Program-made: the position numbers and the translations under genes
Assembly (NCBI GenBank): GCA_028823175.1
Contig: JAPKBZ010000015.1
Coordinates: 3,523 to 67,522, forward strand
DNA from: Myxococcota bacterium
Lineage (GTDB): Bacteria > Myxococcota_A > UBA9160 > UBA4427
DNA: 64,000 bases
Direction of reading: 5' to 3'
Shown here: positions 6,731-59,589 of the stretch, one piece after another
How positions within the stretch are numbered: position 1 is the first letter of the stretch
Layout of the letters: each line of letters begins with the position of its first letter
The notes under the pieces: model-generated
What the model was told of the DNA's origin: nothing
The model's input: the letters and a program-made list of their open reading frames with translations, nothing else
Database searches by the model: none

Positions 6731-7663
6731 TTAGAGGGCGCGAGAAAGAAGGATCGTGCCCAGCATGGCGTCCAGGGTGGGCTCGACACGGGTCGCATCG
6801 TTTTCCTCTGAAAATTCTGCAAACCCCCCATCCGTCGCCTGCTCACCCAGCAAATCTATGAGCAGAAGTGCCGGGTCCAAACTCGCTCCCGGAACAGCGA
6901 GGCTCTGGCAATGGAGAAGCGTCCGTACGGTCAGACCCGCGTCGTAGGCCCGCGTTCGATAGCCACGTTCGAGTTCGCGTCCAATCCACTGCAGGGCGCT
7001 ATCCGCGAGATCGTGGCCGACATTGGTGAAGAAAACTCCGAAAGCGGTGAGTGACTCCCATTGGCGCCCCGAAATCTTGTCGGGGTTAAAAATCGAGCCG
7101 AGGTATTCGCCCGCAGCCTCAAGCAGTTCCGGGCGAACGACCCGAGTTCGGCCGAGGAGACCCGCCAGCATGCCTGTTGCAAAGAGCCTCGATTCGGGGG
7201 GGCCGTCATCCGCGCCCCAGGCTCCGTCGTCGGCCTGGATCGATTGCAGGAAGACCGCGGCCCCATCGATGCAGGGATGATGGTGCAGCCCGAGATCCGA
7301 GAGCGCGACCAGCGCTTCGAGTGTTCCTAGAACTTCGGGCACCAATCCGGCCAACTGGCCAGCGGCTAGGCCCGGAGCGCCGCCGCGCGCCAGACCGAGG
7401 AGGGGGAAAGAACCGTTTGCGGCCTGGCGGGCCTCGATCTCGGCTGCGCACGTCTCTCGCTTCTCGGCACCCAGCAGCGTACGGACGCGCAGCCTCGCGA
7501 GTTCTTCGCCGTGCACCTCGATAAAGGCAAGCCCCGCCTCCAGGGCCGAAGCGGCCTGCTCGCGCAGGGCCCCGATGTCCTCGGGCGAGGCCCCAGCAGG
7601 AGCATTGCCCTCCTCGGGCTCCGCTCCTCCGAGCACGATGCCCTCAAGCCGCACCTGGCTCAA
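6731..7663 (-). CDS. Hypothetical protein with prenyltransferase/squalene-cyclase-like QW repeats (alpha/alpha barrel)
   Basis: Repeats RQAANGSF, IQADDGAW, EQATDGGF. Probable TTG start at 7663 overlaps the TGA of the upstream methyltransferase. Confidence 0.6.
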   Translation of the reverse strand: MSQVRLEGIVLGGAEPEEGNAPAGASPEDIGALREQAASALEAGLAFIEVHGEELARLRVRTLLGAEKRETCAAEIEARQAANGSFPLLGLARGGAPGLAAGQLAGLVPEVLGTLEALVALSDLGLHHHPCIDGAAVFLQSIQADDGAWGADDGPPESRLFATGMLAGLLGRTRVVRPELLEAAGEYLGSIFNPDKISGRQWESLTAFGVFFTNVGHDLADSALQWIGRELERGYRTRAYDAGLTVRTLLHCQSLAVPGASLDPALLLIDLLGEQATDGGFAEFSEENDATRVEPTLDAMLGTILLSRAL

Positions 7664-8859
7664 GCCGACTGCTCCGCGCCCGCCTCGACCTCGAGCAAAC
7701 AGCCGTGCAGGTAGCGACCCTCGGGATGATGAACCGAAAAGGGGTGATCTGCCGGAGCGCCGAGGGTCCGCAGCCAGCGAACTCCCCGCCCCGCGTCGAG
7801 AGCGGCGCCAAAAACAATCTTCTGGAAGAGATCTGGATCCACGTGGTGAGAGCAGGTAAAAACGACGATGAAGGCCGAGGGCGCCGCACATCGTAGCCCG
7901 TGGAGCAGCATGTCCTTGTAGGCCCGGGATGCCGCCTGGACAGCTCGGCGAGAACGGGCCAGGGGGGGCGGGTCGAGCACGATCAGATCGAACTTTTCGC
8001 TGGCGGCCGAGGCGGAGCGAAGCGCCTCGAAGGCATCCGATCGCCGAATCTCTACGGGACAAGTCAGGCCGTTCATCTCAAGATTCGACTCCGCTATGCG
8101 CAGCGCCGCTTCAGAGGAATCCACCAGCACCAGACTCGCCGCTCCGCCCACTCCTGCCGCCACGGCGAAGCTGCCCGTGTAGCTGAATACGTCAAGTGTC
8201 CGGCGACCGGCTGCCAGACCCATGACCAGTTGCCGCGCATCCCTCTGGTCGAGGTAGAAGCCCGTCTTCTGGCCATGCATGAAATCCACCGCGTAGCGGC
8301 GACCCGCCTCTTCGATAAGTCCCTCCGAGGGCGGCGAACCCCAGAGCGTCCCTTCGTCCGGCGGAATCCCCTCTCGGCGGGCGGAGCTGTCATCTCGGCG
8401 CCGGTAACCGTGGGGGGCGTCGACGAGCGCCTGGATCTTCTGCGCGATCCGATCCGCCCGGGCGTGCATCCCCGCCGTGAGAAATTTTAGGACCACCACG
8501 TCCCCCAGCCGATCCACAACTAGCCCGGGCAACCCATCGCCCTCGGCATTGACCAGCCGCATCGCGTCGGTCTCACGCAAGAGGGGGTGTTCACGCCGCC
8601 GGGCCAGCGCCGCCTCGAGGCGCTGTTCAAGGAGCTGCTCGCCGGGATCCTCCTTGCCAAAAGCCAAGAGCCTGACCCGAATACTCGACTTGGGCGAGTA
8701 GTGGCCGTAGCCCAGAACTTCGCCCCCCTTCGAAACCACCCGCACCCACGCACCCGCGTGAGCCTCGCCGGGCTCGCTCGCGACGGCTCCGGAAAGAAGC
8801 CAGGGGTGCTGGCGGCGTAGGGAGCGCTCGCGTCCTGAGGAGATAATTACGTCCGTCAT
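7660..8859 (-). CDS. rlmI: RlmI/YccW-family SAM-dependent 23S rRNA m5C methyltransferase (PUA + MTase)
   Basis: HPWLLSGA (PUA), RLVNAEGDGLPGLVVD, GQKTGFYLDQR, LDVFSYTGSF, DLIVLDPP, FTCS. Confidence 0.88.
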   Translation of the reverse strand: MTDVIISSGRERSLRRQHPWLLSGAVASEPGEAHAGAWVRVVSKGGEVLGYGHYSPKSSIRVRLLAFGKEDPGEQLLEQRLEAALARRREHPLLRETDAMRLVNAEGDGLPGLVVDRLGDVVVLKFLTAGMHARADRIAQKIQALVDAPHGYRRRDDSSARREGIPPDEGTLWGSPPSEGLIEEAGRRYAVDFMHGQKTGFYLDQRDARQLVMGLAAGRRTLDVFSYTGSFAVAAGVGGAASLVLVDSSEAALRIAESNLEMNGLTCPVEIRRSDAFEALRSASAASEKFDLIVLDPPPLARSRRAVQAASRAYKDMLLHGLRCAAPSAFIVVFTCSHHVDPDLFQKIVFGAALDAGRGVRWLRTLGAPADHPFSVHHPEGRYLHGCLLEVEAGAEQSA

Positions 8860-8948
8860 AGTCCGGATAGGTTCGTCCATTCGGCTCGCCCCAACAAGCG
8901 CTGGTGCCGCTAGAATGACCCGTTCTAGAATCTTATTGAAAGTTTTCC

Positions 8949-11030
8949 GTGGCCCCCGACTCTTCACCCCCATCTCCTGCTTCTCCCTCGGACCTCCCCG
9001 GCAACCGGCTCTCCGCGGCATCGAGCGCCTACCTTCTCCAACACAGCCAGAACCCCGTCGACTGGTATCCCTGGGGACCCGAGGCCCTGGCACGAGCCCA
9101 GGAGCTCGATCGCCCGCTGCTGGTCTCCATCGGCTACAGCGCCTGTCACTGGTGCCACGTGATGGAGCGGGAGTCCTTCGAAAACCAGGCCACCGCAGAG
9201 TTCATGAACGCAAATTTCATCTGCATCAAGGTGGATCGCGAGGAGCGGCCCGATGTGGACCAGATCTACATGGACGCGGTCGTTCGACTCAACCAGGGTC
9301 AGGGTGGCTGGCCTCTCACCGCCTTCTGCCTGCCCGATGGGGGGCCCTTCTTCGGCGGCACCTACTACCCCGACGAACCGCGCCACGGCATGCCGAGCTT
9401 CCGCCAGGTACTCGAGGCGCTTGCCGACGCCTATGCGAATCGCAGGGGCGAGGTCGAGGATGCGGCCCGCCAGGTCGTCGCCTCTCTTCAGATCGATCTC
9501 GGGGCCGCCTCGGGCAAGCCCGTGGCCAGCGAGGCCGCGAAGCGGGCTTGTGAACTCCTCATGCGCGGAGCAGACCACGATCACGGAGGATTCGGCTCTG
9601 GCCCGAAATTTCCCACACCGACGAACCTCGAGTTCCTCCTCGCCGCCATCGACCTGCTCCCGGCGGACGAGGCCAGACCCGTTGCCCTTCACCTGACAAA
9701 AACCGCTCGGGAAATGGCCCGACGGGGCCTATTCGATCACCTGGGTGGAGGCTTCCACCGCTACTGCGTGGATCGCGCCTGGACGATTCCCCATTTCGAA
9801 AAAATGCTCTACGACCAGGGACTCCTCCTGCGCTTCTACGCCGAAGTGCTGCGCCGGGGAGGCGAAGCCGAAGAACTCGCCTGGCCCATCCGGGAAACCG
9901 TCGACTACCTCAGGCGGGAAATGACTTCGCCCGAAGGCGGCTTCTACGCGAGCCAGGATGCCGATGCCGAGGGCCGTGAAGGGGCCTTCCAGGTCTGGAC
10001 CCCTACAGAGATCGGGGCCGTTCTGGGTGAGGCCGCCGACGAGTTCTGCCAGGCCTACGGAGTCGACGAAGAGGGCAATTTCGAGGAGGGCAGCACTCAC
10101 CTTATCGATCAAAAACGGGCGGGTCGTGAACTATTCGCCGACGAACGAGCCCAACTCCTCATCGCCCGACAAAAACGGGTCGCCCCGGAAACGGATAAAA
10201 AGCGCGTGGCCGCCTGGAACGGGTATGCCATCTCGGGCCTGGTTCGAGCGGGCGATGCCCTGGCCGACCCAACAATGCTGACCGATGCGACCACGGCCAT
10301 GGATTTCGTTCTCGATGAAATGGTCGACCCTTCGGGCAGACTCCACCGTATCTTCAACCGGGGAGTCTCCAGTGTTCCGGCCTTCCTCGACGATCACGCC
10401 GCGCTCCTCGACGCATGCCTCGATCTCTTCCGCGCTGGGGCCGGAGAACGTTTCCTGGCAGCGGCCCTGCATTTTGGCCAAGAAATAGGCGATCGATTCA
10501 TCGACGAGGATCGGGGAGCGGTTTTCTTCACCGCGAACGACGGCGAGAAACTCGTTCACCGTCCCCAAAGCGACCATGACGGTGCCACCCCCGCAGCCGC
10601 AGGCCTTGCCGCCGTAGGCTTGATACGGCTGGCCCACCTCGCGCAGCTCCCGCCCATCGCCCAACAGGCGGAAATGATCATCATGACCCATGCTCCCCTC
10701 ATCGAACGCTCGCCCCACGCCCTCCCCACCCTCTTGCGCGCCATGACCCTCGCCGAGCGCAGCGTCTCTGTCGCAGTGATCCGGGGCGACGAGGATGACC
10801 CGCAAACCCTGGCCCTGGCGGCCCGGGCCAGGCGAGTTCTGCTTCCCGACGATGGGGTCGTCGTTCTTGCGCCGGGTGCGCCGCGACCGGTGGGGGTCGG
10901 CGCCGACTGGCTACGTGGCCGGGAGGGCCGGGCAGGCCAAGCAACGGCCTGGATCTGCCAGGGCACCCGTTGCTCACTGCCCATAACTGATCCCGCCGCG
11001 ATCGCGCCCCTTTCCTCAGTGACGGGGTAA
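8949..11030 (+). CDS. Thioredoxin-domain + six-hairpin glycosidase-like protein (YyaL/SPATA20/DUF255 family)
   Basis: [69 protein letters not shown]. Confidence 0.93.
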
Positions 11031-48334: not shown

Positions 48335-48754
48335 TCAGTGCAACGTGCAGGCGACGAAGATTCGGGTCAGAACATCCTTCACCTTCAATTCCCCGATGTC
48401 GGCTCCGGCCTCGTAGAACTGGATTCGGAAATCCGGGGGTTCCTGGGCCGGAAATTCATCGGCGAAGGCCCCGGTGAGCCGATCGAGAACCTGAACGGCC
48501 TGCTCGCGATCCACGTCGGCGAGGTGCACCACCGCGCGTTCACGGGTCATCCGAAAGATCCCGTCCTCGACTCTCAAGGCGCTCTGGAGATAGTGGATGT
48601 ACTCGGGAAAAGTCGTGTCGCCCTCGTTAGCCACGAGGCCAACGATGACCGAGGGAACCGAGTACTCGCTCGCGAGTTTGGAAACCCGGGATACCAAGGC
48701 ACTGAGCTTGCGGGGATCGTCTGCCAATTCGTCGGTCATAAGAGTTTGAAACAT
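48335..48754 (-). CDS. Small hypothetical protein, degenerate GGDEF-like fold with RxxD site
   Basis: LQSALRVEDGIFRMTRERAVVHLADVDREQAVQVLDRL aligns by eye with the GGDEF core LRxxDxxxRxGGDEFxxLL..A..v.eRL. Confidence 0.6.
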   Translation of the reverse strand: MFQTLMTDELADDPRKLSALVSRVSKLASEYSVPSVIVGLVANEGDTTFPEYIHYLQSALRVEDGIFRMTRERAVVHLADVDREQAVQVLDRLTGAFADEFPAQEPPDFRIQFYEAGADIGELKVKDVLTRIFVACTLH

Positions 48755-48911
48755 ACACCGAACACATCGGACGCGATCCTCCAAATCTTTAGCCAAACCC
48801 AAAAACTTTCGCCGGGGCAAAATGCCCCAACTTTTCACCCCTCCGTCCTCGGGCAGGCGCCCGGTGGGGTGCTAAACAGTCGGACCAGCGAACAGGAGGA
48901 GTTCTGTCCCC

Positions 48912-49403
48912 ATGCGCCCGCACGAAATCTTTGCCTCGATGCCCCCCGAACAGACCACCGCCTTCTTCGGCACCCTGTCGGATGAGTGCCCCGCGGTCTT
49001 CCAGCAGGCCGTCCACGCCGCCTCGCTGGCCATGAAGAGCCGGCCCCGCTACCTGCTCAAACAACCCCTTGAAAAACAGGCACTTGCGGTTCGCCGAGCG
49101 CTCGCCCGAGTGGCCGCTGGACCCCTCGCCGAAGAGATTCTGGCCTCCTATTTTATCGAGTGCCGCAAGGAGGTCCTGGAGGCCTGGCTCGACCGCGTCG
49201 GACTCGAACACGAGAACGGTGTCCTCAAAGAGAACGCTCCGGAGCCGCCTGACCCGGCCCAGCTGGCCGAGCACGTCGCGGGCTACCTCGACGAGTCCGA
49301 CGACCCGGACCGCCCGCTGCTCTTGAGGGCCTTCGGTGCCCAATCCTCCATCGACTGGCCCGAACTCGACGGACTGGCCAAGGCGCACCCGGCGAAGGCG
49401 TAG
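48912..49403 (+). CDS. Hypothetical helical protein
   Basis: AGGAGG RBS and ATG start, GC3-rich codon usage; no family recognised. Confidence 0.75.
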   Translation: MRPHEIFASMPPEQTTAFFGTLSDECPAVFQQAVHAASLAMKSRPRYLLKQPLEKQALAVRRALARVAAGPLAEEILASYFIECRKEVLEAWLDRVGLEHENGVLKENAPEPPDPAQLAEHVAGYLDESDDPDRPLLLRAFGAQSSIDWPELDGLAKAHPAKA

Positions 49404-50372: not shown

Positions 50373-51275
50373 TTAATCGGACAGGGACTGCGCGATCAGC
50401 CGCATCTCGTCGGCGATGCTACCGGGAATGGTGTAGTCGCCGGGCTCGTGGATCTGGGCAAAATTCGCCTGGATATCCTCGGCCGTGGGCGTCCCCTTCT
50501 TGTCGGTCCAGCCCGGGGCCAGACCGATGAAGATGCGGGCGAAACGACCGCCACCCACGGAGTACACGCAGTGGGTTTGCTCGTTGGCTTCCGAGCAGAG
50601 GTAGACCACCAGGGGCGTCACCTTGTCGGCCTCCACGCGGTCGGCCATGGCGCCGAGCAATTCTTCGGTGAGCCGGGTCTTCGCGATCGGGGCGATCACG
50701 TTCGACTGGATATTATTCTTGGCGCCCTCCACGGCGAGCACGTTGGACAAGCCCACCAGGCCCATCTTGGCGGCGCCGTAATTGCTCTGGCCGAAATTAC
50801 CGAAGACCCCGGCGGCTGAAGTCGTGTGGACGAAGCGGCCGTAATTGCGCTCCTTCATCGCCCGGAAGGCGGGCTGGGAAACGTAGAACGCGCCCTTGAG
50901 GTGCACGTCGATCACGATTTCGAGCTCTTCCGGGGAGAGCTTGACGAAGGACTTGTCCCGGAGGATACCCGCGTTGTTCACCACGATATCGACCTGGCCA
51001 AAGGTATCGAGAGCGGTCTGGATGATCGCCTCACCGCCTTCAGGGGTGGAAACCGAATCGTAGTTGGCCACGGCGGTCCCGCCGGCTTCCTCGATTTCCT
51101 TGACCACCTGATCGGCCATGCTGCTGCTGCCACCGCTTCCATCGGAGGCGCCTCCCAAGTCATTGACCACGACTTTGCCGCCACGGCGGGCAAACTCCAG
51201 CGCGTAGGTGCGGCCCAGGCCGCCGCCGGCGCCCGTGATCACTGCCACACGATCATCGAATCGAATTTCACTCAC
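50373..51275 (-). CDS. SDR, MFE-2-type 3-hydroxyacyl-CoA dehydrogenase
   Basis: AAGGAG RBS; TGAGGGLG, VVVNDLGG, NNAGILRD, GNFGQSNYGAAK. Confidence 0.92.
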   Translation of the reverse strand: MSEIRFDDRVAVITGAGGGLGRTYALEFARRGGKVVVNDLGGASDGSGGSSSMADQVVKEIEEAGGTAVANYDSVSTPEGGEAIIQTALDTFGQVDIVVNNAGILRDKSFVKLSPEELEIVIDVHLKGAFYVSQPAFRAMKERNYGRFVHTTSAAGVFGNFGQSNYGAAKMGLVGLSNVLAVEGAKNNIQSNVIAPIAKTRLTEELLGAMADRVEADKVTPLVVYLCSEANEQTHCVYSVGGGRFARIFIGLAPGWTDKKGTPTAEDIQANFAQIHEPGDYTIPGSIADEMRLIAQSLSD

Positions 51276-51624
51276 GGTTATGCACTCCTTTGATAAAAAC
51301 GAAGGGCCCGCAGCGAGAAGCGCGGACCGAGCATCGGGCCCGAGGGACCGGGCCCGGGGGATCGAGGAACGATCCCGGGGCTTCGGACGCTAGCTCGCCT
51401 GGGGAAGGCGTCGACCCCGGGCGTGGCGGGAAATGGGCCCCGCTCCGGGCTCAGCGGCCCTGCCGAGCGCCTTCCCCCGAGCGCCTTCGCGGGTCTCGCC
51501 TGCCGAGGTCACAGAGGCCGAAAGAAGCCCTAATTTCGGGCGGTCCCGGCGAATCTCGACCCGGCCGAGAAACCACAGTGGGCCAGTGGGTCGTCGATTC
51601 TCGACATTGCCCTCAGCCGAACCC

Positions 51625-51665
51625 GGCGCTATTACCGAGGCGAAAGCAATCGCGGAGATAGCGCC
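51625..51665. promoter_or_regulatory. Inverted repeat/stem-loop upstream of the arsS-like operon
   Basis: GGCGCTAT (51625-32) pairs with ATAGCGCC (51658-65); inner CCG/CGG and GC-GAAA-GC; overlaps TTGCCC-N17-TATTAC. Confidence 0.4.
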
Positions 51666-51694
51666 CCCTGGCCCTCTAAAAGGAAAACCCCGCT

Positions 51695-52693
51695 TTGGCC
51701 CAAGAACAAGCACCCACCAAAGAGCCCGGGCATCGACGCTGGAGCGGCGAAGGCTTCGCCGAATCCCCCCTGGGCCGAATCACCCGGGACAGGGTCGAAG
51801 TCCTGCAGGTCAATATCGGTAAGCGATGCAACCTCGCTTGCCATCACTGCCACGTCGAATCCTCTCCCAAGCGCCGGGAAAAGCTCTCGCCCGAGGGCTG
51901 CGCCCGGATCCTGGAATTGTTGGCGCAAAACCCCGAGGTGCAGACCCTGGACCTCACCGGGGGCGCCCCGGAGCTCCACGAGGGATTCCGCGACCTGGTT
52001 GCCGGTGCCCGCGCCCTGGGCCGACGCGTCATCGACCGCTGCAATCTGACCGTTCTCTTCGAGGAGGGCCAGGAGGACACCGCTGAGTTCCTGGCGGATC
52101 AGGGCGTCGAGATCGTCGCCTCCCTCCCCTGCTATACCCCCGAAAACCTCGAGGCCCAGCGCGGGCGGGGCGTCTTCGCCGGGAGCATCGAGGCCCTCCG
52201 CCGACTGAACGCCTTGGGCTACGGAGCGGGCGACCGGGAGCGCGTCCTCGACCTCGTCTATAACCCCGGCGGCGCACACCTGCCTCCCCCCCAAGAGGAA
52301 CTCGAGGCCGAGTACCGGGTGCGGCTCGCCGAGGATTTCGGTATCCGCTTCGACCGTCTCCTCACTCTGACCAATATGCCCATCAAGCGTTTTGCCCATG
52401 ACCTCGCCCGACGCGGGCAGGTGGAGGCCTACATGGCCTTGCTTGTTGCCCATTTCAACCCCGCCACCCTGCCCGGCCTCATGTGCCGCAGCATGCTCAG
52501 CGTGGACCACCGGGGCCAGTTCTTCGACTGCGACTTCAACCAGGCCCTCGATCTGCCCGTGCATGGCCCCAAGCGGAATATCTGGGAAACGGATCGCCTG
52601 GCGGATCTCGCTCAGCAGCCGATTCGAACCGCTCCCCATTGTTTCGGCTGCACGGCGGGCACGGGTTCGAGCTGCTCCGGCGCCCTGGTCTAG
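51695..52693 (+). CDS. arsS: ArsS-family Cys-rich radical SAM protein (arsenosugar biosynthesis / rSAM_SeCys type, Cys form)
   Basis: LQVNIGKRCNLACHHCHVESSP, DLTGGAPE, IDRCNLT, SLPCY, LMCR, DCDFNQ, HCFGCTAGTGSSCSGAL. Confidence 0.9.
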   Translation: MAQEQAPTKEPGHRRWSGEGFAESPLGRITRDRVEVLQVNIGKRCNLACHHCHVESSPKRREKLSPEGCARILELLAQNPEVQTLDLTGGAPELHEGFRDLVAGARALGRRVIDRCNLTVLFEEGQEDTAEFLADQGVEIVASLPCYTPENLEAQRGRGVFAGSIEALRRLNALGYGAGDRERVLDLVYNPGGAHLPPPQEELEAEYRVRLAEDFGIRFDRLLTLTNMPIKRFAHDLARRGQVEAYMALLVAHFNPATLPGLMCRSMLSVDHRGQFFDCDFNQALDLPVHGPKRNIWETDRLADLAQQPIRTAPHCFGCTAGTGSSCSGALV

Positions 52694-52731
52694 GGGCAGG
52701 ACTATCCAGACCCGGTAGACTGCCCTGACCG

Positions 52732-53496
52732 ATGCCCCGTTCCCAAGACGAATCGCCACGCCTGCCCGAGCCCTCAGCGGCCAGCAGGATCGCCACCCTA
52801 CGCAAACCCGCGCTCGGCCTCGCCGCGGTCGCGGCGCTCTTTGTCCTGGCTCGAAGCGCCGGGGACCCACTCCTCGAGGCCGTGGCCTGGGTCGAGGGAT
52901 TGGGGCCCCTCGGGCCCGTCGTCTTCATCGTGCTCTACGTGTTCGCCACCGTATTCTTCATCCCCGGATCGATCCTGACCCTCGCCGGCGGAGCTCTCTT
53001 CGGCTTGGCGGGCGGGTTGGTCTACGTCTTCATCGCTGCTTTTACGGGCTCATCCCTCGCGTTCCTGATCGCGCGCTACGGCGCCCGAGCCTGGGTCGAG
53101 GAGCGACTCGGATCGAATCCCCAATTCGAAGCCCTCGACCGCGCCGTGGCCGAGGAGGGGCTCAAGATCACCTTCTTGCTGCGCCTGTCCCCGGTCTTCC
53201 CCTTCAATTTTTTGAACTATGGCCTAGGGCTAACTCGGGTCAGCCTGCGGGACTACATGATCGCCTCCCTGGGCATGCTTCCCGCCACTTTTCTGTACGT
53301 CTACTCGGGCCGGGTCATCGGCGACGTGGCTCTGCTGGCCGGGGGCGCCAGCCCCGAACGCGGTGCGGGCTACTACGCGCTTCTCGCCCTCGGCCTCGCG
53401 GCAACAGTCGCCGTGACCGCCGTCGTCACGCGCACCGCTCGCCGCGCCCTCGCCAACACCAACCCGGCCCCCGAATCCCAGAAAGAGGATCAATAG
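52732..53496 (+). CDS. TVP38/TMEM64 (DedA/VTT) family membrane protein
   Basis: PGSILTLAGGALFG, FLIARY, LLRLSPVFPFNFLNYGLG, GMLP. Confidence 0.92.
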   Translation: MPRSQDESPRLPEPSAASRIATLRKPALGLAAVAALFVLARSAGDPLLEAVAWVEGLGPLGPVVFIVLYVFATVFFIPGSILTLAGGALFGLAGGLVYVFIAAFTGSSLAFLIARYGARAWVEERLGSNPQFEALDRAVAEEGLKITFLLRLSPVFPFNFLNYGLGLTRVSLRDYMIASLGMLPATFLYVYSGRVIGDVALLAGGASPERGAGYYALLALGLAATVAVTAVVTRTARRALANTNPAPESQKEDQ

Positions 53497-53499
53497 GCC

Positions 53500-55020
53500 A
53501 TGCTTTCCCATAGCGACTCCGACCGCCGCCTGCTCGACCTCGTGCATCCCTCGGAATGGCACAACCCTTCGTCGAGGGGGCGCTACAACCTGGTGGTGGT
53601 CGGCGCTGGGACCGCGGGCCTAGTGACCGCAGCCGGAGCGGCAGGCCTTGGCGCCCGGGTGGCCCTGGTGGAGCGGGCCGAACTCGGAGGCGACTGCCTC
53701 AACGTGGGTTGCGTACCCTCGAAGAGTCTCTTGCGCAGTGCCCACGCCGCGGCCGAACTGCGCGAGGCCGAGGCCCTGGGCGTGCGCGGCAGTGGCGGCG
53801 GCTCGGTGGACTTCGCCGCCGCGATGGATCGAATGCGCGCCGTCAGGGCCCGCATCGCCCCCAACGATTCCGCCGCCCGCTTCAGCGAGGAATTGGGCGT
53901 CGATGTCTTCTTCGGCGAGGGTCGTTTCAGCGGCCGGCGCCAGCTCGAGGTCGCGGGCGAGACCCTCAAATTCAGCAAGGCAGTGATCGCCACCGGGGCC
54001 CGGGCCGCGGTGCCCCCCATCCCCGGACTCGAAGAAGCCGGCTACCTGACCAACGAAAATGTTTTCGATCTCGAGGTACTCCCGGCCAGGCTCCTCGTGC
54101 TCGGGGGCGGGCCCCTGGGCTGTGAACTCGCCCAATCCTTTGCCCGCATGGGGGCGAGGGTCACCCTGGTGGAACTCGCCGACCAATTCCTCCCGCGAGA
54201 GGATCCCGAGGCCGCCCAGCTGCTCTTCGAACAACTCGAGCGCGACGGCGTCGAGGTGCGGCTCTCGACCTCTCTGGGCCGGGTCGAGGGCACGCCGGGC
54301 GGAGAAAAGCGCGCGCTTCTCACGCGAGGGGGCTCGGAGGAGAGCGTGGCCTGTGACCAGATCCTGGTTGCGGTGGGGCGGGCCCCCAACGTCGACGGCA
54401 TCGGGCTCGAGGCCGCGGGCGTCGTTCATGACCGGCTTCGGGGAGTCCACGTCAACGACACTTTTCGTACCACCAACCCGAATATCTATGCCGCAGGCGA
54501 CGTCTGCATGGCGCACAAATTCACCCACGCCGCGGATTTCGCCGCTCGAGCAGTCATCCAAAACGCGCTCTTCGCCGTCGGTCCCTTCGGGCGCAAGAAG
54601 CACAGTGAGATGACGATTCCCTGGTGCACCTACACCGACCCCGAGATCGCTCAGGTCGGCCTGGGGGAAGCCGAAGCCGCCGAGCAGGGGGTCGAGATCG
54701 AGACCTTCACCCGCCCCTTCTCCGAGGTCGATCGTGCCATCGCGGACGGGCGCGACGCCGGCTTCGTCAAGATCCGGGTGGCCCGGGGAAGCGACCGCAT
54801 CCTGGGCGCCACGGTGGCGGGCTACGGAGCCAGCGACCTGATCGGCGAAATCGCCGTCGCCCAGGCCGCCGGCCTGGGGCTGGGTGCCCTGGCCGCGGTC
54901 ATTCATCCCTACCCGAGCCGGGCCGAAGCCATCCGGCAATTGGGCGACGCCTATAACCGAACCCGCCTGACCCCCGGCGTCAAGCGACTCTTCAAGCGTT
55001 ATCTGGATTTCCGCCGCTAA
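53500..55020 (+). CDS. Class I pyridine nucleotide-disulfide oxidoreductase (mercuric reductase/LpdA-like, not true MerA)
   Basis: GAGTAG, GGDCLNVGCVPSK, GGGPLGCE, AAGDV, FTHAA, IHPYP; no C-terminal Cys-Cys pair. Confidence 0.9.
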   Translation: MLSHSDSDRRLLDLVHPSEWHNPSSRGRYNLVVVGAGTAGLVTAAGAAGLGARVALVERAELGGDCLNVGCVPSKSLLRSAHAAAELREAEALGVRGSGGGSVDFAAAMDRMRAVRARIAPNDSAARFSEELGVDVFFGEGRFSGRRQLEVAGETLKFSKAVIATGARAAVPPIPGLEEAGYLTNENVFDLEVLPARLLVLGGGPLGCELAQSFARMGARVTLVELADQFLPREDPEAAQLLFEQLERDGVEVRLSTSLGRVEGTPGGEKRALLTRGGSEESVACDQILVAVGRAPNVDGIGLEAAGVVHDRLRGVHVNDTFRTTNPNIYAAGDVCMAHKFTHAADFAARAVIQNALFAVGPFGRKKHSEMTIPWCTYTDPEIAQVGLGEAEAAEQGVEIETFTRPFSEVDRAIADGRDAGFVKIRVARGSDRILGATVAGYGASDLIGEIAVAQAAGLGLGALAAVIHPYPSRAEAIRQLGDAYNRTRLTPGVKRLFKRYLDFRR

Positions 55021-55086
55021 TCCCTGGAGATCGAGAAGGCCCTCGAGCGATTGAGCGGGGCGCCTCCCGCGCTACCCTGCTCCGCC

Positions 55087-55695
55087 ATGCCCCTCCCCAT
55101 TACCGTCGTCAGCGGCAGCCCGCGCTCGGGCACTTCGATGATGATGAGCGTGCTCGAAGCCGCTGGCCTGCCCCTACTCTGCGACGGCAAGCGCCCGTCC
55201 GACGCGTCGAACCCACGGGGCTATTTCGAACTCGAGGCGGTCAAGGGCACCCGGAAAGACCCACGCTGGCTGGAGCGCGCGGAGGGGCACGCGGTCAAGG
55301 TCGTCCACGCCCTGCTCGATGCGCTCCCCGAGCAGTACGCGTATCGAGTCCTCCTCATGCGCCGCCCTCTCAAATCGGTGGTCGCCTCCCAGAACCGGAT
55401 GCTCGAGCGCCTGGGCCGACCCACAGGCGAAGCCGACGCCGAGCGTCTGTCGCAAATCCTGTCGGCCCAGCTCGACGAGGCCCGCCAACTCCTCGACGAG
55501 CGGGCCTGTTTCGAGTGGATCGAGGTCGACTACCCCGGGCTCATCGCCGACCCCCTTTCCCGGCTTCGGCCCCTCGGTGCTTTTCTCGACCTCCCCCTTG
55601 ATTCGCCTTCCATAATCGAGTGCATTAGGCCCGAGCTCAACCACGCAACGAGCCCACCCGCCCCAAGGGGCGCTACCGGCGTTGGAGATATTTGA
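55087..55695 (+). CDS. Sulfotransferase family protein
   Basis: 5'-PSB VSGSPRSGTSMMM, NPRGYFE, 3'-PB MRRP..VVASQ. Confidence 0.85.
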   Translation: MPLPITVVSGSPRSGTSMMMSVLEAAGLPLLCDGKRPSDASNPRGYFELEAVKGTRKDPRWLERAEGHAVKVVHALLDALPEQYAYRVLLMRRPLKSVVASQNRMLERLGRPTGEADAERLSQILSAQLDEARQLLDERACFEWIEVDYPGLIADPLSRLRPLGAFLDLPLDSPSIIECIRPELNHATSPPAPRGATGVGDI

Positions 55696-56126
55696 TGACC
55701 CTGCCCAACCACCCAGACCGCCCTCGCTGCGCGGCCCTGATCCTGCCCGGGCTATTGCTGACCCTGCTGGTGCTCCCCGCCTGCAGCCCCGGGGACCCGG
55801 CCAGCATTCGCCTCGTCAGCCAGGCCGAGGTCTCCGAAAGCCTCGGCGATGCCGAGGCCCCGCTCCTGCTCGACGTTCGCACCCCGCGAGAGTTCCAGAG
55901 CAGCCATATCCCCGGCGCCGTCCACATCCCCGATACGGAAATTCTCGCACGCCTCGACGAGCTGCGGCAGGAGAGCGCGGACCGGGGCGTCGTCATCTAC
56001 TGCGAGAGCGGGGGCCGAGCCCTCCGAACCGCAAGCACCCTGCTCGACCAGGGCTTTACGAATATCGGACACCTCGATGGGGACATGTTGGCCTGGCGTC
56101 AAGCCGACCTGCCCACCGAGCCCTGA
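55695..56126 (+). CDS. Rhodanese-like domain lipoprotein
   Basis: Lipobox-like LVLPAC; LLDVRTPREF..HIPGA, YCESGGRA, LDGDMLAW; TGATG overlap with the sulfotransferase gene. Confidence 0.88.
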   Translation: MTLPNHPDRPRCAALILPGLLLTLLVLPACSPGDPASIRLVSQAEVSESLGDAEAPLLLDVRTPREFQSSHIPGAVHIPDTEILARLDELRQESADRGVVIYCESGGRALRTASTLLDQGFTNIGHLDGDMLAWRQADLPTEP

Positions 56127-56223
56127 TCCCGAGAAGCGAGTCCCGGCCGACCCCAGCGGTGGCCACTCACCCCCTACACCCGCCCCGATTGAGGGGCTTT
56201 CAATTGCGGAGACAGCGAAGACC

Positions 56224-56778
56224 ATGCCGAACCTTCTTCGATTCATCGGGCTGGCCCACAACACCAAACCCAGCGCCAGCGAGCAGGCCGACGAAGCCCT
56301 GCACCCCATCGTGGAGGCCCTGGAAGGCCTCGAGCCCAAGAGGGCCCGTTTCTTCGCCGCTTTCGCCTACGTCCTCGCGCGGGTCGCCGGGGCTGACTTG
56401 CGCGTGGAGGCCGAGGAAACCGAGTCCATGGTGGCCACCCTGGCCGAATTGACCGCGATCTCCGAGGACGAAGCGCGCCTCGCGGTACGGATCGCGAGTT
56501 CTCGCATGGACGACCTGGAGGCCACCCACAACTACCTCGTCACCCGGGAGTTCGGAAAACTCAGCGATACAGCCGAGAAAATCCAGCTAATCGAGTGCCT
56601 CTACGCCGTCGCCGCCGCCGACGGAACGATCACCGGAGACGAGAGCAATGAGGTCGCGGGTATCGCGGAAGAGATCGGGCTCTCTCGCCCCGATGCCGTC
56701 GCCTTGCGCTCGCGATTCCGCGACAAACTCGCCGAATTTCAAAAACTCGACGGCGAGCGAGGCTCGGCGAAGGACTAG
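56224..56778 (+). CDS. TerB family (tellurite-resistance/DjlA N-terminal-like) protein
   Basis: VAGADLRVEAEE and VAAADGTITGDE..IAEEIGL duplicated motifs. Confidence 0.82.
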   Translation: MPNLLRFIGLAHNTKPSASEQADEALHPIVEALEGLEPKRARFFAAFAYVLARVAGADLRVEAEETESMVATLAELTAISEDEARLAVRIASSRMDDLEATHNYLVTREFGKLSDTAEKIQLIECLYAVAAADGTITGDESNEVAGIAEEIGLSRPDAVALRSRFRDKLAEFQKLDGERGSAKD

Positions 56779-57458
56779 CTTCGCACTAGGAGCAGGGTAC
56801 GCGGGTCGAGGCCCACGTGGAGGTCGTGAAGGTCCTCGTTCTCGTGATCCTTGATCGCACGCAGGGTAATTTCGTCACCCTTGGCTTCAAGGGTCACGAT
56901 CACGTTCAAGGCCTCTTCCACCCCGGAGACCGAGGCCAGTCCCTCGCTGCCGCCCGTGGTCTCCAAGGTCATCCAGGCCTCGGCTGCCAGGCCGGCCAAC
57001 AGAGAACGAATCCCCTCGACGTCATCCTGGGTAATCTGCTCCGCGTCCAAACCGTCGATCACGATCAGGGTAGGCCTGGCACCCGCCTGGACCTCCACCT
57101 TGAGCGCATCGCTGAGCTTGCTCACGCTGAAGCCAGCCTTCCGGTACGAACGGATCCGGCGGTGGTCATCGATTTCGGCGTGGCTGGCGGTGGGGTCATC
57201 CAAGTGCGTACTCGCCGCCAGGGCCAAATAAACCGTGTCGTAATAATCGCGCACGTGGGAAACCGTCTGGTCCAGAGCCACGTGGAGCACCGTGCCTCCC
57301 CGCAACAATTCGTCGATCGACACCCCAACCAGGAAGGATGTTTTTCCGACGCCGGGGCCGGCGATGCAGGCACCGACGTTGCCCACGCCCAGGCCTCCGT
57401 GAAGGCCTTTCTCAAACAGCCTCATCGGGCTGCGCGCATTTACAAATTTTCTATACAT
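56775..57458 (-). CDS. Single-domain RecA/KaiC-like P-loop ATPase of unknown function
   Basis: GGLGVG, Walker A AGPGVGKT, VLHVALDQ, Walker B LIVIDG. Confidence 0.78.
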   Translation of the reverse strand: MYRKFVNARSPMRLFEKGLHGGLGVGNVGACIAGPGVGKTSFLVGVSIDELLRGGTVLHVALDQTVSHVRDYYDTVYLALAASTHLDDPTASHAEIDDHRRIRSYRKAGFSVSKLSDALKVEVQAGARPTLIVIDGLDAEQITQDDVEGIRSLLAGLAAEAWMTLETTGGSEGLASVSGVEEALNVIVTLEAKGDEITLRAIKDHENEDLHDLHVGLDPRTLLLVRS

Positions 57459-57486
57459 CGGGCCAAACTCCTGGCACCCAACGCGA

Positions 57487-59589
57487 CTATTCCTCGTCGT
57501 CGGGAATCTTCGAGTGGTACTTCTCCTTGAGTTCCTTCTGGATCTCAGACGGCGCGGGCGAGTACTTCGCGAATTCCATGCTGAACTCGGCCTTGCCCTG
57601 GGTCATGGAGCGGAGATCCGTGGCGTAACCGAACATCTCGCTGAGCGGCACCTCGGCTTCCACCCGCGTGAAACCATCCTCTTCGGTGGATCCGATTATG
57701 TGTCCACGACGTTGCATGATGGTTTTCAAGATAGCGCCCTGAAATTCGCCGGGGCCCTCGACCTCGAGTTTCATGATGGGCTCCAGAATCTGGGGCTTTG
57801 CCTCTCCGTAGAATTTCCGGAAAGCACCGCGAGCCGCGGCCTGGAAAGCCATTTCCGATGAATCGACGCTATGGGACTGACCGTCGTTGATCACCACCCG
57901 AAGGCCGAGCACCGGGAAGCCAATCAGCCGCCCCTTGTCCAGAGACTGCCTGAAACCCTTCTCAACAGCGGGGATATACTCCGTCGGAATCGAGCCGCCT
58001 CGAATCGCGCTGACAAACTGGAAGTCCTGGTCGCCATCGTCCCCATCGGGAATCGGCTCCACGTAGCCCGCAACTCGGCCAAACTGACCCGAACCGCCCG
58101 TCTGCTTCTTGTGGGTATAGGTGAAATCGACCTTACGCGAGATCGTCTCTCGAAAAGCCACCTGGGGCTGACCGGTTTCCACTTCGCAGTCGTATTCCCG
58201 CTTCATCCGCTCGACGTAAACATCGAGATGCAGTTCGCCCATCCCCGAGATGATCGTCTCGTTGCTCTCCGGATCAACGGCCGAACGGAAGGTGGGATCC
58301 TCGCGCACGAAGCGACCCAGAGCCTTGCCCATATTGTCGGAGCTCTTCTGGTCCTTGGGCTTGATGGAAAGCGAGATCACCGGGTCGGGCACATGCATGG
58401 AAGTCATGGCCATATCGATCTTGCCGTCGGTAAAGGTGTCGCCGGAAGCACAATCGATCCCGAAAAGGGCCACGATATCGCCTGCCGAGGAGGAATCGAT
58501 TTCCTCCATCTCGTCGGCGTGCATCCGAATCAGTCGTCCGACCTTGACCTTCTTCTTGTTCCTTGAGTTGTAGATCGTGCTGCCCTTAGCAAGCGTGCCC
58601 TGATAGACACGCAGGTAGGTGAGCTGTCCGTATCGGGTATCCTCAAGCTTGAAGGCGAGGGCCACAAGGGGCTTCTCGGGGTCGCTATAGACTTCGATCT
58701 CGGCCTCATCATTCGAGAGATCGACACCCGTATTCTTGATATCCAGGGGAGAGGGCAGGTATGCCCTGACGGCATCGAGCAGGGGCTGAACGCCCTTGTT
58801 CTTGTAGGCCGAGCCGAGGAAAACCGGAGTCAAATCCATCGAGAGAGTGCCGATCCGCGTGGCTTCGTGGATCAACTCCTCGGTGACGTTCTCTTCGAGA
58901 ATCGCCTCGGTGAGATCATCGGAGAACATGGAAACTGCATCGAGCATGGTCTCCCGCGCGATAGCGACGGCATCTTTCATGCCGTCCGGGATTTCTTCCT
59001 CCACGATCTCTTCACCGTTCTCGCCGAGGAACATCAGCGCCTTCAAACGGACCAGGTCGACCACACCCTCGAACTCTGACTCAAGGCCGATGGGAAGTTG
59101 GAACAGCACGGCATTATGGCCCAGCTTCTCTCGCAGCTGCCCCGTGACCTTGGCGGGATCTGCGCCCGAGCGATCCAGCTTGTTGATGAATGCGATCCGC
59201 GGAACCTTATATCGCTTCATCTGGCGATCCACGGTCATGGACTGGGACTGCACGCCCGCCACGCCGCAAAGAATCAGCACGGCTCCGTCGAGCACGCGGA
59301 GAGCCCTCTCCACCTCGATGGTGAAATCCACGTGACCCGGGGTGTCAATGATATTGATCTCGGAATCTCCCCAGAGGCAATGCGTCGCCGCCGAAGCGAT
59401 GGTGATTCCGCGCTCGCGTTCGAGCTCCATGGAGTCCATGGTGGCCCCGACCTCATCCTTGCCGCGAACCTCATGGATCGCGTGGATGCGCCCGGTGTAG
59501 AAGAGCACGCGCTCGGTCAGGGTCGTCTTGCCCGAGTCGATGTGTGCGCTGATTCCGATATTTCTGACTTTTTCGATGTCGCTAGCCAT
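57487..59589 (-). CDS. fusA: Elongation factor G (EF-G1, spirochete/delta/mitochondrial-type)
   Basis: [59 protein letters not shown]; not flanked by rpsL/rpsG/tuf. Confidence 0.97.

Follow-up and report, generated by a model that had tools for sequence, protein, structure and literature searches.

An ArsS, DedA and flavoprotein reductase cassette with sulfur-gene neighbours in a marine Myxococcota genome: a probably composite locus

Do six co-oriented genes on a contig from a marine Myxococcota bacterium (assembly GCA_028823175.1, contig JAPKBZ010000015.1) encode a single pathway? The window, by which we mean the whole 64,000-nucleotide stretch of this contig that was analysed, carries six open reading frames (ORFs) on the plus strand at positions 51695-56778. 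They encode an ArsS-family radical S-adenosylmethionine (SAM) enzyme, a DedA/TVP38 membrane protein, a flavoprotein disulfide reductase, a sulfotransferase, a rhodanese and TerB. A first-pass annotation of this DNA proposed that all six act together. In that proposal ArsS adenosylates As(III) provided by the reductase, the product receives sulfate or sulfur through the sulfotransferase and rhodanese, and DedA transports it; TerB was taken as a hint of a selenium or tellurium substrate. Our preferred answer, to which we give a probability of roughly 0.6, is that the locus is a composite of an ArsS-DedA-reductase cassette, sulfur-related passenger genes and a resident terB. Judged by sequence comparison, it is a rather unremarkable example of a gene module that already has a name, since only arsS, dedA and the reductase gene travel together elsewhere and the other three look like local neighbours. 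The ArsS identity and the partnership with DedA and the reductase were kept from the earlier interpretation; the reading of six genes as one pathway was not.

To survey the gene neighbourhood, we took the best 80 ArsS loci from Myxococcota species genomes, searched them by tblastn with the window proteins and clustered their ORFs. Denominators for single genes count only the loci with enough flank. Relatives share a backbone of a short-chain dehydrogenase/reductase (SDR) gene, arsS, variable genes, terB, a KaiC-like gene and the genes for EF-G and Fmt. DedA followed ArsS in 30 of 69 loci and the reductase in 27 of 61. The sulfotransferase followed ArsS in 6 of 54 loci, and the rhodanese in 4 of 52, all of them in the closest relatives. 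An ArsM-family methyltransferase gene lay directly upstream of arsS in 20 of 68 loci, an ArsC-family gene lay downstream in 15 of 52, and terB lay downstream at a variable distance in 33 of 52. Both flanks were long enough in 55 loci: 20 of them had DedA-reductase only, 11 had ArsM only, 4 had both and 20 had neither. ArsS was also found in 34 of 151 Acidobacteriota genomes (the tally includes one unpublished genome, G453, which contributed to no other result). The 33 Acidobacteriota ArsS loci held DedA in 5 cases, the reductase in 4, an ArsM-like gene in 7, a TIGR04282 gene in 6 and a TIGR04283 gene in 4, and three of the loci with DedA or reductase also held TIGR04282/TIGR04283 genes.

A lack of linkage of arsS to the sulfotransferase, rhodanese and TerB genes in other genomes had been set beforehand as the refuting test of the single pathway. 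A profile hidden Markov model (HMM) built from 29 members of the sulfotransferase family detected the family near ArsS at 6 of the 80 Myxococcota loci and at none of the 33 Acidobacteriota or the 6 plasmid loci. TerB was not found near ArsS outside the lineage, either in the annotated plasmid loci or, by tblastn, in the Acidobacteriota (0/33). The sulfotransferase, rhodanese and TerB are not linked to ArsS outside one narrow clade, and a single sulfur-decorating arsenic pathway is not supported.

The features of the locus are as follows.

51695-52693, plus strand: arsS, 332 aa; ArsS-family radical SAM enzyme (TIGR04167, PF04055, PF12345/DUF3641)
52732-53496, plus strand: dedA, 254 aa; DedA/TVP38 (VTT-domain) membrane protein (PF09335, 103.9 bits)
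53500-55020, plus strand: reductase gene, 506 aa; class-I flavoprotein disulfide reductase (NF004991, 741.8 bits)
55051 (TTG) or 55087 (ATG) to 55695, plus strand: sulfotransferase gene, 214 or 202 aa (PF13469)
55692 or 55695 to 56126, plus strand: rhodanese gene, 144 aa (PF00581, 75.8 bits)
56182-56197, plus strand: weak terminator-like hairpin in the rhodanese/terB gap, with a 5-bp stem and a poor T run
56224-56778, plus strand: terB, 184 aa (PF05099, 56.4 bits)
51276-51694, no strand: divergent intergenic region between the SDR gene and arsS, 419 bp

All six genes described in the first-pass annotation were recovered as ORFs with the same coordinates and spacing (successive gaps of 38, 3 and 66 bp, an overlap, and 97 bp), and every gene identity it gave has a Pfam or NCBIfam match. 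If TTG 55051 is the sulfotransferase start, the gap after the reductase gene is 30 bp instead of 66. The sulfotransferase stop and the rhodanese start overlap as TGATG, with GGAG 8 nt upstream, and terB has a GGAGA and an ATG of its own. The six genes are probably co-transcribed in the window genome, because the gaps are short, two genes overlap at TGATG and only a weak hairpin stands ahead of terB. The terminator scan was uninformative, since it gave 7 sites against 5.5 expected by chance. No sigma-70-like promoter was found in a scan of the SDR/arsS intergenic region, and a search of 51000-57500 against Rfam gave no match at E<=0.1. That intergenic region is the position where relatives have a DUF3047 gene and an ArsM-family methyltransferase gene. 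Upstream, the cluster is bordered by divergent SDR, MaoC and Lnt genes, and downstream by convergent KaiC-like, EF-G and Fmt genes.

The first gene encodes a full-length ArsS: the match to TIGR04167 covers model positions 2-303 of 303 at 424.7 bits (cut-off 300). The protein also matches PF04055 at 51 bits and PF12345/DUF3641 at 174.7 bits. Its radical SAM motif CX3CX2C reads CNLACHHC, and the translation has the Cys-rich DUF3641 tail HCFGCTAGTGSSCSG. On the ArsS tree the window copy falls inside a Myxococcota clade, among ArsS proteins whose genes neighbour an ArsM-family gene, DedA-reductase or both. The earlier assignment of a Cys-rich radical SAM enzyme to the ArsS family agrees with the family cut-off being passed and with the position of the relatives' orthologues behind ArsM-family genes. 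The available portion of PMC13598754 states that ArsS adenosylates trivalent dimethylarsenical, DMAs(III), to give 5'-deoxy-5'-dimethylarsinoyl-adenosine (DDMAA).

The source genome is a 4.64-Mb metagenome-assembled genome (MAG), 91% complete, and its nearest public relatives are uncultured Myxococcota. DNA of the region 51300-57000 occurs in 16 listed runs, all of them marine or seawater DNA metagenomes, with no RNA run among them. A second ArsS is encoded on another contig (C120:62-1751, locus L012). It is 53% identical to the window copy, scores 420.8 bits against TIGR04167 and adjoins, at the contig end, a TIGR04282 "arsenosugar glycosyltransferase" gene (153 bits, cut-off 134). This ArsS lies on a long branch outside the Myxococcota ArsS clade, and its contig has a GC content of 59.1%, compared with 62.1% genome-wide. 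This ArsS could have been acquired by transfer, or its contig could be a binning guest. A third contig (C18:19371-23775, L163) has a TIGR04283 gene for a GT2 glycosyltransferase (203 bits, cut-off 182), followed in the same orientation by two genes for ATP-binding cassette (ABC) transporters in which the membrane and ATPase domains are fused. These transporters may be an export route for a product of the other arsenosugar-type genes. The window locus itself has no TIGR04282 or TIGR04283 gene and no ArsM gene, as the first-pass annotation had pointed out. Its suggestion to look for them elsewhere in the genome led to the two glycosyltransferase-type genes on C120 and C18 and to no arsM.

Could the two genes after arsS be its partners? 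The window DedA is 51% identical to a "TVP38/TMEM64 family protein" encoded beside arsS on a Pseudanabaena plasmid and 40% identical to the DedA half of a Burkholderia fusion protein, and the reductase is 43-50% identical to its counterparts on these plasmids. The Pseudanabaena plasmid has the order TVP38, "mercuric reductase", arsM, TVP38, arsS. On Burkholderia glumae and B. thailandensis plasmids, a TVP38/TMEM64-FAD-oxidoreductase fusion gene lies about 10 kb from arsS. Between the two are TIGR04282 and TIGR04283 genes, a methylthioadenosine phosphorylase gene, a major facilitator superfamily transporter gene and a pair of extracytoplasmic function (ECF) sigma genes. In the window, dedA ends 3 nt upstream of the reductase gene; by these identities, the two are a split form of the "bifunctional TVP38/FAD-dependent oxidoreductase". 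In the available portion of PMC10127716, pyridine nucleotide-disulfide oxidoreductase is named as the commonest fusion partner of COG0398 DedA proteins. Our literature search found no paper that pairs TVP38 with arsS or arsM. Together with the survey, the plasmid loci support DedA and the reductase as recurrent partners of ArsS across phyla.

The reductase scores well above the NF004991 cut-off of 620 bits and has the CxxxxC redox pair CLNVGC. Its nearest solved structures are MerA 5x1y (263 bits) and dihydrolipoamide dehydrogenases. We considered that it might be MerA and rejected this: TIGR02053 gave 380.1 bits against a cut-off of 454.45, there is no Cys in the last 40 residues, and no HMA domain was matched. 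The absence of the MerA Cys-Cys, which had been reported earlier, can be read directly from the translation, where there is no C-terminal Cys pair. A reductase paralogue on contig C30 (18976-21798; NF004991 284 bits, under the cut-off) is divergent to a gene for a PatB-type C-S lyase homologue.

An ECF sigma and zf-HC2 anti-sigma gene pair was seen beside ArsS clusters both in Myxococcota (L047, L078 and others) and on the Burkholderia plasmids (L095, L098). It may be a dedicated regulator of ArsS cassettes.

The fourth gene very probably encodes a real minimal sulfotransferase of about 200 aa, because the fold matches of its predicted structure and its invariant motifs agree. It matches PF13469 (Sulfotransfer_3) at 39 bits (cut-off 27). 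A PRSGTS loop and an R93...S101-Q102 motif, which we take to be the loops that bind 3'-phosphoadenosine 5'-phosphosulfate (PAPS), are invariant in 29 family members. The predicted structure has a mean predicted local distance difference test (pLDDT) score of 88.9, and its best Foldseek matches are PAPS sulfotransferases (query TM-scores 0.50-0.57, E 3.5e-5 and weaker). No NCBIfam family was matched, and a search against the sequences of solved structures at E<=1 returned a single chance repeat match (E 0.24). The PAPS-type assignment made in the first pass is thus in line with the family model, the loop motifs and the modelled fold.

The distribution of this sulfotransferase does not follow that of ArsS. 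It was found in 121 of the 401 genomes of the phylum, nearly always in single copy: in 25/25 genomes of the own family, 11/11 of family f3, 8/8 of f4 and 8/11 of f5. ArsS was matched in 174 of these 401 genomes. A strong sulfotransferase match (E<=1e-27) with no ArsS at E<=1e-40 was seen in at least 15 genomes, and whole families are ArsS-positive with a weak or no sulfotransferase match (for example f24, ArsS 23/23). Among 20 fetched sulfotransferase loci, 7 had the gene directly after the reductase gene, all in genera g1, g3 and g4, and 13 had it elsewhere, including loci of other genera of the own family. In one genome (G078), DedA, reductase, sulfotransferase and TerB are together and ArsS is on a separate contig. 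The adjacency of reductase and sulfotransferase maps to a single origin in one small clade of the ArsS tree, so that the relatives have it by descent.

Seven of the 13 loci elsewhere (L132-L136, L138 and L139), from the sister family f5, carry a sulfotransferase-DUF7700-PatB-family C-S lyase fusion. The L132 fusion (7235-9361) is about 705 aa long with the sulfotransferase at the N-terminus, and its C-S lyase part scores 374 bits against TIGR04350 (cut-off 340); this score was obtained on L132, and the other six loci were assigned by clustering. We found no description of this domain combination. Frames of about 720 aa at sulfotransferase matches, which we had considered as reductase-sulfotransferase fusions, are in fact this C-S lyase fusion.

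The rhodanese is a single-domain protein with a CESGGR loop in the translation, presumably the catalytic loop. By eye we read a putative lipoprotein or export signal, LLVLPAC. At this site in the locus the gene occurs only in the own genus.

TerB is a neighbour of a different kind. Its gene lies beside the KaiC-like and EF-G genes with or without ArsS, DedA and the reductase. It directly follows the reductase gene in several loci (for example L052, L060 and L171, and in genome G273) and is often split from the cassette by opposite-strand genes, either ArsC or an ECF sigma/anti-sigma pair. G123 and G027, two genomes that gave no ArsS match, keep TerB and DedA-reductase at the site. A canonical ter operon (terZABCDE) was rejected: only the TerB domain is present, and its neighbours are the rhodanese, a KaiC-like ATPase and EF-G. 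The KaiC-like gene (56775-57458, minus strand) encodes a 227-aa KaiC/RecA-like P-loop protein that is under all family cut-offs. It converges on terB with a 4-nt overlap between its 3' end and the terB stop, and it is a neighbour of EF-G in relatives too.

Where would the methylated arsenic for ArsS come from? No ArsM-family gene was found in the source genome, where the best NF008823 match was 56.8 bits against a cut-off of 263 in a genome 91% complete, and tblastn of this genome with the relatives' ArsM-like protein gave no match. The relatives' ArsM-like gene itself scores under the cut-offs, with 373 bits against NF040538 (cut-off 500) and 190 bits against NF008823. An ArsM-family gene was also not found in the 7 searched genomes of genera g1, g3 and g4; three control genomes of the same family, from three other genera, were positive at E<=1e-170. 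ArsS is nevertheless kept across these genera. With no ArsM-family gene found, methylated arsenic would have to be scavenged from seawater. Seawater supplies methylated arsenic.

The composite reading suggests the following mechanism. The arsS, dedA and reductase genes would be a trimmed copy of the widespread "arsenosugar-type" cassette. As an orthologue of ArsM-linked copies, the window ArsS would cleave SAM reductively and place the 5'-deoxyadenosyl radical on a trivalent dimethylarsenical, most likely one scavenged from seawater, to give DDMAA. The reductase and DedA would most likely work at the membrane, where thiol/disulfide chemistry would keep or make the arsenical trivalent; alternatively, they might move the substrate or a lipid-linked product. 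The sulfotransferase would be a conserved gene of the order, with an occurrence that does not track ArsS; in the ancestor of a few genera it would have been inserted between the reductase gene and terB. In the own genus, the translationally coupled rhodanese lipoprotein gene would have been added afterwards. Both are probably co-transcribed with the cassette and may serve a sulfur-metabolite function of their own. terB would be a long-standing resident beside the KaiC-like and EF-G genes, outside the ArsS pathway.

Several points weigh against this reading. The roles of DedA and the reductase in arsenic chemistry are ones that we purely infer. The DedA-reductase pair also occurs without ArsS on Variovorax, Acidiphilium and Mesorhizobium plasmids, where the homologous reductases are found beside glucoamylase and DoxX genes. 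Within the own family, G123 and G027 (94-95% complete) retain DedA-reductase though ArsS was not found, in the order SDR, DedA, reductase, ArsC, TerB, KaiC-like, EF-G. The terminator scan gave no terminator-like site in the gap from the reductase gene to the sulfotransferase gene, and TGATG couples the translation of the rhodanese to that of the sulfotransferase. Reductase and sulfotransferase are adjacent on the same strand in 10 of 10 distinct related loci that have both, with gaps of at most about 80 nt (by tblastn ends), in three genera and two further MAGs; this is what a functional operon would look like. The genera with the sulfotransferase insertion are exactly those where no ArsM-family gene was found, and this overlap could reflect a changed pathway, not a coincidence of descent. 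The MAGs behind the absence calls are 83-98% complete, and tblastn or a single family HMM may miss distant sulfotransferases, rhodaneses or TerB proteins.

Might the functional unit be something other than the ArsS cassette? One alternative, which we consider unlikely, is that DedA, reductase and TerB, with or without the sulfotransferase and rhodanese, form a membrane module for redox, sulfur or stress functions. ArsS and ArsM would then be movable add-ons, and the sulfotransferase would belong with the reductase and DedA and have no tie to arsenic. The gene orders in G123 and G027, which include ArsC, are as expected from such a module, as are the grouping in G078 with ArsS elsewhere, the position of terB immediately 3' of the reductase gene in L052, L060 and L171, and the plasmid DedA-reductase pairs and fusions without ArsS. 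However, most genomes of the order have the sulfotransferase at a site separate from DedA-reductase, and TerB beside DedA-reductase was not seen outside the lineage. Close relatives have synteny by descent, so the persistence of this gene order says little about function.

A second alternative keeps the ArsS-DedA-reductase unit of the ArsM-less clade and takes it off arsenic: ArsS would adenosylate a selenium or sulfur compound, or make an unknown membrane metabolite. This also has a low probability in our view. It would account for the retention of ArsS in the source genome and 7 relatives where no ArsM-family gene was found. ArsS is widespread in the phylum, an ArsM-like gene is directly upstream in just 15 of the 55 loci with both flanks, and the NCBIfam name of TIGR04167 carries the word "(seleno)protein". 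On the other side, the window ArsS is orthologous to copies that are linked directly to ArsM-family genes, ArsC-family genes recur nearby in the proportion given above, and a seawater supply of methylated arsenic is at hand. The activity on DMAs(III) is the sole one shown for the family in the available portion of PMC13598754.

The sulfur genes may still be imagined as part of arsenic chemistry in this clade only. Here, an ArsM-less marine Myxococcota clade would have recruited a PAPS sulfotransferase and a periplasmic rhodanese into its ArsS operon and would turn scavenged dimethylarsenic into a sulfated or thio-arsenosugar-type compound. We find this quite improbable. If it were true, it would be the first genetic handle on the formation of sulfate- and thio-arsenosugars. 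A limited literature search ("arsenosugar" with "sulfotransferase") found no enzyme for sulfated arsenosugars, and we know of no defined one; the sulfotransferase is a weak lead in this direction.

The original proposal of one six-gene pathway is very doubtful: the tight co-oriented spacing with TGATG coupling, the 10/10 adjacency, the PAPS-type motifs and predicted fold, and the failure to find ArsM in the clade speak for it, but the adjacency arose once in a small clade, the sulfotransferase is missing near ArsS in the Acidobacteriota and plasmid loci, occurs in at least 15 genomes without an ArsS match, is fused to a C-S lyase in the sister family, lies elsewhere in other genera of the own family and is separated from ArsS in G078, the rhodanese is apparently exported (by eye) and so apart from a cytoplasmic radical SAM enzyme, and TerB stays where ArsS was not found.

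The part worth a bench test is the combination of ArsS, DedA and the flavoprotein reductase, which recurs across phyla. The retention of ArsS in three ArsM-negative genera suggests either external methylated arsenic or another ArsS substrate, and either option would bear on marine arsenic cycling.

Farther upstream in the window, two ORFs at 48335-48838 (minus strand) and 48912-49403 (plus strand) have no Pfam or NCBIfam match and are found at the same position in 26 and 31 related loci, respectively.

Compared with the cyanobacterial ArsM-ArsS arsenosugar pathway of the Synechocystis type, the window locus has the same full-length TIGR04167 protein with its radical SAM motif and DUF3641 tail. 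The ArsS orthologues of relatives lie behind ArsM-family genes, and the source genome has TIGR04282 and TIGR04283 genes on other contigs. In contrast to that pathway, no ArsM-family gene was found in the source genome, the window locus has no transferase genes of this kind, and co-oriented genes for the sulfotransferase, rhodanese and TerB stand downstream of its cassette. The closest likeness of the second and third genes is to the TVP38-oxidoreductase of Burkholderia and Pseudanabaena, which is near arsS in both; the window reductase is 43-50% and the window DedA 40-51% identical to them. The Burkholderia protein is a fusion, whereas the window has two separate genes 3 nt apart. MerA belongs to the same flavoprotein disulfide reductase fold family as the window reductase, shares the CxxxxC pair and provides the best solved match, 5x1y. 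The window reductase differs from MerA in that it scores under the family cut-off, lacks both the C-terminal Cys pair and the N-terminal metal-binding domain, and has no mer genes nearby. The sulfotransferase resembles PAPS sulfotransferases such as the CurM ST domain (4gbm), tyrosylprotein sulfotransferases and mycobacterial Stf1 in its Sulfotransfer_3 domain, its PRSGTS and R...SQ motifs and its predicted fold. Compared with the CurM ST and Stf1 types, the window protein is minimal, with about 200 aa, and its sister-family orthologue is fused to a PatB C-S lyase.

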